64,000 bases of DNA from the NCBI RefSeq assembly GCF_000027125.1, contig NC_017626.1; one strand, given 5' to 3'. Of the stretch, positions 638-50,881 are shown one piece after another. The position numbers were made by a program, and so were the translations under genes. Origin of the DNA: Escherichia coli 042. Its GTDB lineage: Bacteria > Pseudomonadota > Gammaproteobacteria > Enterobacterales > Enterobacteriaceae. Within the stretch, counting starts at the first letter, position 1. Each line of letters begins with the position of its first letter. A model generated the notes under the pieces. That model ran no database searches, was not told the DNA's origin, and worked only from the letters and a program-made list of their open reading frames with translations.

Positions 638-1110
638 TCCAGGAGATGCTCCTGCATGGCTTTCAGATATGCATTTTCTGCGCGAAGATAACGCAGCTCA
701 TTCTTCATCTCTTCCGGCGTCATGTTTGCCTCGTTTTCATGGGTATCATCAGAACGGGTCATGCTTTTCTCCTTCCTGCGCCTGATAAAGGCCTCATTAC
801 CAGATTTGCGGTAGCCTTTTATCCAGTTTTTAACCGTGTTGTGGCTGGGAATGTTAAACCGGGCAGCTACCCGGGGTAGAGACTCAGAATGCCCGAGAGC
901 ATAAAGAACCACGCAAAGTTTATCTTCAGGAGAATAGCTACGCTTGTGTCTGCAATCCAGTGCCCGAGGACCGTGAAGAAGAAAAAGATTAATCCAGTGT
1001 GAGAGGCTGGTGTGAGAAAGTTGAAAGAGTTTTGCCGTAGAAATGATGCCTGCATGACCAGCCAGGTAATGATTTACAGCGGCAAGTTTTACTTCAAATG
1101 AATGTTTCAT
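589..1110 (-). CDS. IS3-family transposase OrfA (HTH DNA-binding); ATG at 1108-1110 (track begins at an upstream GTG)
   Basis: 173 aa with HTH N-terminus and C-terminal leucine-zipper-like charged region; resembles IS150 OrfA as recalled. Confidence 0.8.
   Translation of the reverse strand: MKHSFEVKLAAVNHYLAGHAGIISTAKLFQLSHTSLSHWINLFLLHGPRALDCRHKRSYSPEDKLCVVLYALGHSESLPRVAARFNIPSHNTVKNWIKGYRKSGNEAFIRRRKEKSMTRSDDTHENEANMTPEEMKNELRYLRAENAYLKAMQEHLLEKKRQELEKKRKSSGA
631..638 (-). other. Programmed -1 ribosomal frameshift site (A AAA AAG) of the IS3-family transposase
   Basis: Plus strand CTTTTTTT = AAAAAAAG on the coding strand, at the OrfA/OrfB overlap. Confidence 0.6.
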
Positions 1111-1186
1111 AAACTGCACCTTCAGATGTCAGATTATGTCCAACATTTGGGGTGCAGTTCATACGCCGCATCCGGCAATAAATGAC

Positions 1187-1417
1187 TCAACGTTGTCCCG
1201 CTTCTGGTTTGCGCGATTTTTGCCAGTAAAAATGCTCGCGCAAACCTTCCGCCGACTCTTCCGCCACAGCACGCAATTCATCGCTGTCCGCTTCATGACG
1301 CAGTTGATGATCCACATTCTTTACCCACATAAATTCATGTCCTTTGTGCCCTGCCATGAGTTGTCCTGAGAACAGCGCACACGTTAATAAGACAACCGAT
1401 AACGCCTTCGTAAACAT
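1187..1417 (-). CDS. yncJ: DUF2554-family small secreted protein YncJ
   Basis: 76 aa ORF, N-terminal signal peptide (MFTKALSVVLLTCALFSGQLMA), ATG start; matches YncJ as recalled. Confidence 0.85.
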   Translation of the reverse strand: MFTKALSVVLLTCALFSGQLMAGHKGHEFMWVKNVDHQLRHEADSDELRAVAEESAEGLREHFYWQKSRKPEAGQR

Positions 1418-48249: not shown

Positions 48250-48895
48250 GTCGAAAATGATTGTGCGCACCAAATTTATTGATCGCGCCTGTCACTGGAC
48301 CGTGGTGATTTGCTTCTTCCTGGTGGCGCTGTCCGGGATTTCGTTCTTCTTCCCGACGCTGCAATGGCTGACGCAAACCTTCGGTACGCCGCAGATGGGA
48401 CGCATTTTGCACCCGTTCTTCGGCATTGCGATTTTCGTCGCGCTGATGTTTATGTTTGTGCGTTTTGTGCATCACAACATCCCGGATAAGAAAGATATTC
48501 CGTGGCTGTTGAACATTGTCGAAGTATTAAAAGGCAATGAGCACAAAGTGGCGGATGTCGGTAAGTACAACGCCGGGCAAAAGATGATGTTCTGGTCGAT
48601 CATGAGCATGATTTTCGTGCTGCTGGTGACCGGGGTGATTATCTGGCGTCCGTACTTTGCGCAGTACTTCCCGATACAGGTTGTCCGTTATAGCCTGCTG
48701 ATCCACGCGGCTGCGGGTATCATCCTGATCCACGCCATCCTGATCCATATGTATATGGCATTCTGGGTGAAAGGATCGATTAAAGGGATGATCGAAGGAA
48801 AGGTGAGCCGTCGCTGGGCGAAGAAACACCATCCACGCTGGTATCGTGAAATCGAGAAGGCAGAAGCGAAAAAAGAGAGTGAAGAAGGGATATAA
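48242..48895 (+). CDS. fdnI: Formate dehydrogenase-N gamma subunit (cytochrome b556)
   Basis: 217 aa from ATG at 48242 overlapping the fdnH stop; 4 TM. Confidence 0.9.
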
Positions 48896-48949
48896 TCTCT
48901 TTTGAACTTTAAGCTGAAAATGGCGCTGTAAAAGGCGTCATTTTCATAT

Positions 48950-49080
48950 TGTAGACAACGTAGGCTTTGTTCATGCCGGATGCGGCGTGACGCCTTATCC
49001 GGCCTACAAACCCTTCAAATCCAATAGATTGCAGTGAACTTGTAGGCCTGATAAGCGTAGCGCATCAGGCAATGTTGCGT
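48950..49080. repeat. REP element cluster downstream of fdnI
   Basis: Inverted copies GCCGGATGCGGCGTGACGCCTTATCCGGCCTACAA … GTAGGCCTGATAAGCGTAGCGCATCAGGC. Confidence 0.7.
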
Positions 49081-49122
49081 TTGTCATCAGTTCTAAATGG
49101 CGCTTTATAAAGTGCCATTTTT

Positions 49123-49407
49123 TTATTGCGTAACCAGACGGCGTAATCGCGACACATCCACCGTTTTTTCAGCCTCTGCCAGACTCCAGGCGTTTTGCAG
49201 ATTCAGCCACATTTGCGGCGAACTGCCGATCACCACGGAAAGTTTAATTGCCATTTCTGGCGTCAAAGCTGCTTTTCCGGTCAGCAATCGGCTTGCCGTT
49301 GAGGGCGCAATTTCCATTGCTCTGGCAAACTCGCGCAGGCTGACATTAAGTTCGTCCAGTGATTCCTGAATAATGTCCCCCGGGCGGGGATGATTGGCCA
49401 TTTTCAT
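49123..49407 (-). CDS. yddM: HigA-like antitoxin (XRE-family HTH)
   Basis: 94 aa with HTH ([22 protein letters not shown]); immediately downstream of and 1-nt overlapping a RelE/HigB-like ORF. Confidence 0.8.
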
Positions 49408-49685
49408 CAGTGATAGTCCTCGTAATCCAGTATGTATGCATCGCCATTGACGAATTCAAATGTGATTCGCCAGTTGCCCGAGACAGATATCGCCCAAATT
49501 CCATCGCGATCGCCGCTTAACGGGTGTAGTCGGTAACCGGGCATATCGATATCAGCAAGACAGCTTGCCGCATCAATCACAGCAAGTCGATGGCGTAATC
49601 GTTTGACTTGCGTCGGTATAACGCCGGAGGTTTTGCCGAGAAGAAACAAGTCACGCAATCCCTTGTGTCTGAAATTCATTATCAT
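49407..49685 (-). CDS. HigB-like toxin (RelE/ParE superfamily mRNA interferase)
   Basis: 92 aa small basic protein upstream of the HTH antitoxin; toxin-first order typical of HigBA; ATGA start/stop overlap. Confidence 0.65.
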
Positions 49686-49870
49686 CTCTTCATCCTTGTT
49701 CCCTCGAAAGGAACACTATCACTATTGTTCCGTGCAGCGCAACAAATTTCGCTACGTTTTCGCGAATTGTGAGGGGAAAGATGGGGGAGGAAAAGAAGAA
49801 GAGTGAAATTGCGGAAAGCGTCTCGCAAAACAGGCTGCGACCCGAACATGGCAGTCGCAGCAAAGGCTTC

Positions 49871-50881
49871 TTAGCGGCGGAAATCAATCACCATACGGCC
49901 ACGGATTTTGCCTTCTTCCATCTCAGTAAAGATGGTGTTGATGTCCGCTAACGGACGCAGGGCGACTTTCGGCACCACTTTGCCTTCGGCGGCAAACTGG
50001 AAGGCTTCGGTGAGATCCTGGCGCGTGCCGACCAGCGAACCGACCACTTCAATACCATCCAGCACCAGCCGTGGGATATCCAGGCTCATAGACTCCGGCG
50101 GCAGACCGACTGCCACAACACGCCCGCCTGCACGAACGGCATCGACCGCAGAGTTAAACGCAGCTTTAGCTACCGCTGTCACCACCGCAGCGTGTGCACC
50201 ACCGGTTTTCTCCTGCACAATTTTGGCGGCGTCTTCGGTGCGTGAGTTAATCGCTAAATCTGCACCCATTTCGGTTGCCAGTTTCAACTGCTCATCATTG
50301 ACATCAATGGCGATCACTTTGGCGTTAAAGACATTCTTCGCGTATTGCAGGGCGAGGTTACCCAGACCGCCAAGACCGTAGATAGCAATCCACTGCCCTG
50401 GACGAATTTTTGACAGCTTAACGGCTTTGTAGGTGGTGACCCCCGCACAGGTAATGCTGCTGGCCGCCGCCGAGTCCAGACCATCTGGCACTTTTACCGC
50501 GTAATCGGCGACCACGATGCACTCTTCCGCCATCCCGCCATCAACGCTGTATCCGGCATTTTTAACTGAACGGCAGAGCGTTTCGTTACCACTGTTACAG
50601 TATTCGCAATGACCGCATCCTTCGTAAAACCACGCCACGCTGGCACGATCGCCTGGTTTTAATGAGGTGACACCTGGGCCAACTTCTGCCACCACACCGA
50701 TGCCTTCATGGCCCAGAATTACGCCGGTTTTGTCACCAAAATCGCCATTCTTAACATGAAGATCGGTGTGACATACACCACAACACTCCATTTTCAGCAG
50801 GGCTTCGCCATGTTTCAGTGAGCGCAGTGTTTTATCCGTAACGTCAACATGATGATCCTTCGTAACAACTGCAGCCTTCAT
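49871..50881 (-). CDS. adhP: Zn-dependent alcohol dehydrogenase, propanol-preferring
   Basis: 336 aa from ATG at 50881; MDR motifs GHEGIG and GLGGLG. Confidence 0.9.

Follow-up and report, generated by a model that had tools for sequence, protein, structure and literature searches.

The HigB-HigA toxin-antitoxin pair of plasmid Rts1 is the described system on which our reading of this locus leans. [quoted passage not shown] The Rts1 hig promoter carries two 21-bp operators over its -35 and -10 elements; both are bound by HigA, which on its own gives about 200-fold repression (PMC12266136). Among E. coli proteins named HigA, the helix-turn-helix is C-terminal in the K-12 protein and N-terminal in CFT073 HigA/YddM, and the crystal structure 2ICP is HigA of E. 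coli CFT073 (PMC6987408).

The pair studied here is itself already known: it has been annotated, catalogued, and compared across strains, and its antitoxin has been crystallized. Bustamante and Vidal (2020) listed the locus as TA20, "ParE-2/HigA-2," of adherent-invasive E. coli (AIEC) NRG857c, common to CFT073 and represented in K-12 and HS by the antitoxin only (PMC7232551). We checked the TA20 coordinates and found the same fdnI-yddM-toxin-adhP locus in NRG857c. The TADB 3.0 higBA entry for the pair, NRG857_RS07485/RS07480, is reproduced in a 2024 review, according to which such pairs "remain to be characterized" (PMC11205521), and our literature searches found no activity assay of this toxin. 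We also considered the CFT073 ΔhigBA mutant of Norton and Mulvey (2012) as a test of this locus and rejected it. Its knockout primers are absent from our window (the whole stretch of E. coli 042 DNA that was analyzed, 64 kb long) and the same authors described the CFT073 loci as syntenic with MG1655; thus, that knockout hit the ygjNM-type locus.

A preliminary description of the window proposed a HigB/HigA-type pair between fdnI and adhP. At the sequence level this reading was upheld by family matches of both the toxin and the antitoxin, and we consider it very probable that the pair is an intact chromosomal type II toxin-antitoxin operon of the Rts1 HigB-HigA kind.

Gene order and toxin family

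In the open reading frame list of the window, the pair occupies the minus strand between fdnI and adhP. The fdnH and fdnI genes are on the plus strand, with fdnI ending at 48895, and adhP runs on the minus strand from 49871, followed by maeA. The two genes and their junction are as follows.

49407 to 49685, minus strand: higB-like toxin gene, 92 amino acids, full length and intact in this window (open reading frame list; WP_000605676.1)
49123 to 49407, minus strand: yddM, the higA antitoxin gene, 94 amino acids, with an XRE-type helix-turn-helix (open reading frame list; WP_000781370.1)
49405 to 49409, minus strand: TGATG junction, in which the TGA stop of the toxin gene and the ATG start of yddM share one A (read from the sequence)

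The 92-amino-acid frame thus lies directly upstream of yddM, at the position claimed for it between fdnI and adhP. The one-nucleotide overlap described earlier is present, but the ATGA motif assigned to it is not, as positions 49405 to 49409 of the plus strand read CATCA, i.e., TGATG on the coding strand. The form of this junction suggests translational coupling of the toxin and yddM, and a GAGGA motif 8 nt ahead of the yddM start codon, which also codes for Glu89-Asp90 of the toxin, is a plausible ribosome-binding site. The toxin-first order, put forward as the hallmark of HigBA modules, was found both in the open reading frame list and in RefSeq annotation, with a toxin gene of 279 nt and the geometry of the Rts1-type higBA genes on an IncT plasmid.

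The RefSeq record of E. coli 118UI is 100% identical to the window over the 1001 bases compared, and its annotation gives the gene order fdnG-fdnH-fdnI/yddM/toxin/adhP/maeA. There, yddM is named "HigA family addiction module antitoxin" and the toxin "type II toxin-antitoxin system RelE/ParE family toxin." A point against our reading is that PGAP uses no more than the generic RelE/ParE name for this toxin and calls Rts1-type genes "endoribonuclease HigB."

Next, we compared the 92-amino-acid protein with RelE/HigB profiles, as the preliminary description had advised. It matched the Pfam family PF05015 (HigB-like_toxin) at 64.4 bits against a cutoff of 27 (E = 1.4e-17; positions 2 to 91 of the 91 in the model), and PF05015 was the sole Pfam family matched. 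PHROG 3066, "toxin of TA system," also matched (E = 6e-32). In a phmmer search of the PDB, Rts1 HigB chains (4MCT, 4MCX, 4W4G, and 4YPB) were retrieved at E values of about 1e-31 over toxin residues 1 to 92, with 4MCT_B at 8e-32, and BLASTP aligned the toxin with Rts1 HigB end to end at 57% identity with no gaps. At this level of ungapped identity to Rts1 HigB crystal structures, the predicted RelE-like microbial RNase fold of the toxin is not in doubt.

The same description had asked about conserved catalytic residues, and all of the residues critical in Rts1 HigB are retained. In the pairwise alignment, His54, Asn71, Arg73, Asp90, Tyr91, and His92 stand at the same positions in the toxin as in Rts1 HigB, and all six are invariant in 15 toxin orthologues from four genera. 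A difference that speaks against the reading is that two basic residues near the mRNA path in Rts1 HigB, Lys57 and Arg69, are both serine in this toxin. Judged from sequence, the predicted toxin belongs firmly to the Rts1-type HigB ribonuclease family.

The published "ParE-2" label raises the alternative of a ParE-type gyrase poison working alongside a HigA antitoxin. The label comes from an assignment to "ParE_toxin Superfamily (cl21503)" (PMC7232551), and a review by the same group discusses gyrase inhibition by ParE (PMC11205521). However, cl21503 is the whole RelE/ParE superfamily and not the ParE family. The toxin had no match to Pfam ParE_toxin at an E value of 0.1 or below, and its PDB matches were all HigB or GraT RNases, on which grounds we rejected membership in the ParE family. 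The C-terminal Asp-Tyr-His triplet of HigB is, moreover, intact in the toxin, and TADB 3.0 classes the pair as higBA. We regard a gyrase poison as extremely improbable here, and we read the published "ParE" label as a superfamily-level name that can be refined to Rts1-type HigB ribonuclease.

Antitoxin, putative operators, and proposed mechanism

YddM matched the NCBIfam HigA equivalog TIGR02607 at 93.7 bits against a cutoff of 47.7 (E = 4.5e-27), and an N-terminal Pfam HTH_3 domain was found at residues 14 to 65 (E = 7.6e-10). The protein is 100% identical to the "antitoxin HigA" of PDB entries 2ICP and 2ICT. Given the adjacency of the two genes, their likely coupling, and the co-conservation of both, we infer that YddM binds and neutralizes its cognate HigB.

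We then read the intergenic regions for regulatory elements. The features are listed in the direction of transcription.

49834 to 49861, minus strand: adhP terminator hairpin, GCTGCGAC...GTCGCAGC then CTGTTTTG, just after the adhP stop (inverted repeat scan)
49726 to 49744, minus strand: putative operator O1, TGTTGC-N7-GGAACA, overlapping the putative -35 (pattern scan and cross-genus conservation)
49742 to 49737, minus strand: putative -35, TTGCGC, whose TTGC is part of the left half-site of O1 (position and conservation)
49713 to 49721, minus strand: putative extended -10, TGaTAGTGT, 18 nt downstream of the putative -35 (cross-genus consensus TGnTAnnGT)
49697 to 49715, minus strand: putative operator O2, the perfect palindrome TGTTCC-N7-GGAACA, starting inside the -10 hexamer (pattern scan and conservation)
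49693 to 49696, minus strand: putative ribosome-binding site of the toxin gene, AGGA, 7 nt ahead of its start codon
49095 to 49120, no strand assigned: hairpin with an A-run on one side and a T-run on the other, immediately past the yddM stop (terminator scan; 11 pairs, with the T-run on the plus strand)

The first ATG of the toxin is the conserved start, and the orthologues and Rts1 HigB all open with M-I-x. The adhP terminator hairpin, which is kept in the K-12, O157, and RM9245 alleles, bounds the toxin-antitoxin transcription unit on its upstream side. At the other end, the hairpin after yddM is probably the terminator of the operon and also that of fdnI on the other strand; its role on the minus strand is deduced from the sequence.

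O1 and O2 are 29 nt apart. When the window was scanned for TGTTCC-N7-GGAACA with at most one mismatch, two sites were found, both at this promoter, where 0.18 would be expected. Across the Escherichia, Citrobacter, Buttiauxella, and Cedecea loci, the left half-site of O1 is the same throughout, and the right one shows no more than one base change. O2 is exact at 12 of 16 loci, and three of the remaining four read CGTTCC in the left half-site, a change of its first base only. In these four genera the 7-nt operator spacers and the sequence upstream of O1 vary freely, whereas the half-sites hardly change and keep nearly the same distance from each other. The apparent half-site pattern of O1 and O2 is a clear phylogenetic footprint, and it is consistent with binding of YddM at both sites and autorepression of the operon. 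A scan for simple consensus matches turned up no strong sigma-70 promoter at the locus, and therefore the promoter assignments rest on conservation and position.

By analogy with Rts1, these elements can be assembled into a mechanism. A weak extended -10 promoter would give a bicistronic mRNA with the toxin first. The RelE-fold toxin would enter the ribosomal A site and cleave mRNA at A-rich codons, with His54 acting as the general base, Arg73 steadying the transition state, and Tyr91 backed by Asp90 and His92. YddM/HigA would be made by coupling at TGATG, and its dimer would bind and neutralize the toxin. YddM would also repress the operon through the TGTT[G/C]C-N7-GGAACA operators over the -35 and -10. 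Toxicity, neutralization, the mode of cleavage, and DNA binding are thus all predicted from the analogy. Across E. coli as a species, this module is in decay, with the toxin deleted or frameshifted in most lineages and the antitoxin near-universal.

Distribution, loss, and selection

To place this copy among its relatives, we counted both genes in 5426 complete E. coli genomes. The yddM gene was found in 5412 of them (99.7%). Toxin DNA was present in 1330 and absent from about 75%, and one common frameshift was found in 545 of the 1330 carriers, so that roughly 785 genomes (about 14%), this window included, may have an intact toxin. The states of the toxin gene other than the intact one were as follows.

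Frameshift, ST131 strain EC958 (545 genomes): one G lost in codon 33, giving a 35-amino-acid truncation (annotated by PGAP as a frameshifted pseudogene)
Whole-frame deletion, K-12 MG1655: toxin open reading frame gone, with both putative operators and yddM retained
Partial deletion, O157:H7: deleted from the -10 region into the toxin, with the last 47 nt remaining and 100% identical to the window
In-frame deletion, bat isolate A3: 9 nt lost

The end points of the K-12 deletion are ambiguous, as GAGTAAAGACACTAATG upstream of yddM aligns with either the 5' end of the toxin gene or its last 17 nt. The toxin has thus been disabled or altered in at least four different ways in E. coli, and a decayed toxin was also found in three Citrobacter genomes. 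That the toxin can be dispensed with counts against our reading; since it is absent or frameshifted in most E. coli genomes, any benefit to the host must be weak or lineage dependent. The YddM protein, by contrast with its partner, is identical in the seven alleles compared, with or without the toxin; six yddM alleles had 5 to 8 nucleotide differences each, all synonymous.

In a cross-species scan with one genome per species, the pair adjoins fdnI in E. albertii, cryptic Escherichia, and more than 10 Citrobacter species. Identity among these fdnI-linked copies is 83 to 89% for the toxin and 87 to 93% for the antitoxin. Buttiauxella and Cedecea have more distant copies (62 to 64%), and neither fdnI nor adhP was seen in the 2.5-kb flanks retrieved there. 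Against Citrobacter, dN/dS was 0.04 to 0.11 for the toxin and 0.04 to 0.09 for the antitoxin, and against E. albertii the toxin gene had 11 synonymous and 0 nonsynonymous differences. The toxin gene is therefore not a chance open reading frame, because it has both the PF05015 match and full-length orthologues in other genera at these dN/dS values. Taken together, these results show that the module is old and vertically inherited at the fdnI site, that it is kept by selection where it persists, and that it has been lost repeatedly, toxin first.

A total of 536 plasmids carry relatives at less than 60% identity; plasmids of the IncT/Rts1 type from Providencia, Citrobacter, and Escherichia are among them. 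A few phages also carry relatives; in E. coli phage GER2, the toxin is 61% and the antitoxin 51% identical.

This distribution bears on a second alternative, in which the pair is a relic with an attenuated or nontoxic toxin and YddM has become a domesticated regulator or an anti-addiction factor against plasmid or phage HigB. The near-universal presence of yddM, its unchanged protein in every allele examined, and the at least four independent losses or disablements of the toxin in E. coli, together with the decay in Citrobacter, would all fit. So would the related HigB toxins on plasmids and on an E. coli phage, against which an orphan antitoxin might act, and the handling of YddM as a candidate K-12 transcription factor by Gao et al. 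(2018), whose main text only lists YddM (PMC6237786). Yet strong purifying selection acts on the toxin wherever it survives, and every catalytic residue is kept, which is unexpected for a dead gene, and the copy in this window is full length. Cross-neutralization is uncertain, as YddM has just 40% identity with Rts1 HigA and 51% with the GER2 antitoxin, and a regulator acting more widely finds no operator-like site in the 64-kb window outside its own promoter. We hold it unlikely that the pair is such a relic.

The fate of YddM where it stands alone is a separate matter. A near-universal and unchanged orphan YddM possibly has an anti-addiction or regulatory role. That the orphan has actually been domesticated, whether into a host regulator or into immunity against HigB brought in by Stx-type phages or plasmids like IncT/Rts1, seems doubtful to us, with perhaps a minor share of the probability. 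If it has, the intact pair here would represent the ancestral state of a module in transition.

A third alternative accepts that the pair works as HigBA and places its selected role in anti-phage abortive infection instead of addiction or stress response. Variation in presence and absence within a species, as seen for the toxin, is typical of defense genes. But the toxin matched no PADLOC model, and the antitoxin gave only weak matches, at the level of the helix-turn-helix, to candidate systems; the pair also sits at a stable core-genome site common to Citrobacter, which is not a defense island or mobile element. A selected role in abortive infection therefore appears quite unlikely. Assignment of the pair to a defense-system class was rejected, because no PADLOC model fits the toxin.

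As a discovery the locus matters little, being an ordinary intact copy of a known pair, and its value is the modest one of a curated case. What this analysis adds is the genome counts, the routes of inactivation, the synteny and dN/dS values, and the conserved putative operators flanking the putative extended -10. For K-12 yddM, a putative regulator, it makes the origin clear: the gene is what remains of a HigBA pair after loss of the toxin, and it comes with a predicted operator. It also lays out a natural decay series, from the intact pair through the frameshifted toxin (fixed in ST131-like genomes) and the partly deleted toxin to the fully deleted one. Such a series is suited to the study of how chromosomal toxin-antitoxin modules decay and why antitoxins outlive toxins.

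Comparison with known systems

Within E. coli, the NRG857c toxin at the same locus is 98.9% identical to that of the window, and the window toxin differs from the B2-phylogroup allele by Ser41 in place of Cys41 and by four synonymous changes in the gene. The K-12 HigB-HigA pair (YgjN-YgjM), encoded at the fadH-rlmG locus, resembles this one in name, in its toxin-first order, and in combining a RelE-superfamily toxin with a helix-turn-helix antitoxin. However, it lies at another locus and belongs to another subfamily, and its HigA has a C-terminal helix-turn-helix, unlike the N-terminal one of YddM. With the toxin as query, the PDB yielded no HigB chain of the K-12 type at an E value of 1 or below.

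GraT-GraA of Pseudomonas putida (PDB 6F8S), whose toxin came after Rts1 HigB in the PDB search, is of the same HigB-like/HigA family but much more distant, at E values of 3.8e-7 for the toxin and 1.8e-11 for the antitoxin. The disordered N terminus of GraT, to which the title of PMC6393540 ascribes a regulatory role, is not evident in the 92-amino-acid toxin.

The nearest comparison is that with Rts1, a Proteus vulgaris plasmid, whose HigB (PDB 4MCT/4MCX; ribosome complexes 4W4G/4YPB/4ZSN) is likewise 92 amino acids long and shares the 57% identity described above, and for which HigA-DNA complexes are available (PDB 6CHV/6CF1). The Rts1 pair is plasmid borne, whereas the pair here is chromosomal at a core-genome site. 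The antitoxins have diverged further than the toxins, with 94 amino acids here against 104 in Rts1 and about 40% identity. The half-sites, TGTTCC/GGAACA in the putative operators here and GTATTAC/GTAATAC in Rts1, are completely different. Cross-regulation with Rts1 is thus unlikely and regulation of the two pairs would be insulated, which fits the 40% identity of the antitoxins.

The design, on the other hand, is shared. Both antitoxins are of the TIGR02607 family with an N-terminal XRE helix-turn-helix. On an IncT plasmid of the Rts1 type (L006), higB occupies 701..979 and higA 979..1293, with the same 279-nt higB and the same one-base overlap. Two palindromes, GTATTAC-N7-GTAATAC, lie about 30 nt apart there around TTGCAC and TATAGT. 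Both systems thus have two palindromes of about 20 bp with 7-nt spacers, operators in Rts1 and putative operators here, placed 29 to 30 bp apart around the -35 and -10, and the putative O2 of the pair described here matches the position of O2 in Rts1.

Alleles of the region upstream of yddM

In the promoter region upstream of the antitoxin gene yddM, we compared the alleles of K-12 MG1655 and RM9245. The orientation of a 21-bp segment carrying the putative operator O1 is exactly reversed between them: it reads TTGTTGCGTAGGAAGGAACAA in K-12 and TTGTTCCTTCCTACGCAACAA, the exact reverse complement, in RM9245. This difference looks like a quasi-palindrome (template-switch) inversion in which the symmetry of the putative operator was retained. 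Farther upstream of the toxin promoter lies a tract made up only of pyrimidines.

Equivalent to window 49724-49744: inverted O1 segment, upstream of yddM, MG1655 versus RM9245 alleles
Window 49772-49806, minus strand: pyrimidine-only tract CTCTTCTTCTTTTCCTCCCCCATCTTTCCCCTC, upstream of the toxin promoter

Comparison across loci showed CT-rich sequence at the equivalent position in Citrobacter, and comparison of alleles showed that the K-12-type toxin-less allele is without the tract.

The O157:H7 TR01 allele (positions 958-1140 of its locus, equivalent to window 49407-49880) is a mosaic, in which the adhP terminator is followed by about 35 nt of window-like sequence, a K-12-like O1, a toxin remnant, and yddM. 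A deletion has removed the second putative operator, O2, along with the putative -10 region, and the final 47 nt of the toxin gene together with the entire yddM are 100% identical to the window at the nucleotide level.

The fdnI side of the locus and toxin decay in Citrobacter

The stretch between fdnI and yddM contains palindromic units.

Window 48900-49090: REP/BIME-like palindromic units, between fdnI and yddM

This fdnI-yddM stretch differs in length among E. coli genomes, which fall into coverage classes of 86%, 80%, and 58%. Strain C1 (hit H23) has an annotated tnpA gene of the IS200/IS605 family at its fdnI-yddM-adhP locus.

Three Citrobacter loci (L026, L027, and L037) carry a decayed toxin near position 2501, at the equivalent fdnI-adjacent locus. 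The toxin is truncated and a YddM match is absent in L026, the toxin is frameshifted in L027 (C. portucalensis), and an intact yddM sits beside a toxin remnant of 27 codons in L037. Toxin decay at the fdnI-adjacent locus arose independently in Citrobacter.

Plasmid records and a phage-borne pair

This chromosomal toxin was also found at 93 to 100% identity in three records of the plasmids collection (hits H83 to H85). Judging by its length of 4.9 Mb, one of these is evidently a chromosome that the collection wrongly files as a plasmid; the other two, of 385 kb and 252 kb, may represent pieces of chromosomes.

A higBA pair is present at positions 1501-2084 of the locus from Escherichia phage GER2, a temperate phage (Sepvirinae, Oslovirus) whose source is an E. 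coli O117:H7 strain, and it has antitermination genes and antirepressor genes on either side. Like the chromosomal pair, the phage pair has a 279-nt toxin gene and a 1-nt overlap, with identities between the two pairs of 61% for the toxin and 51% for the antitoxin.
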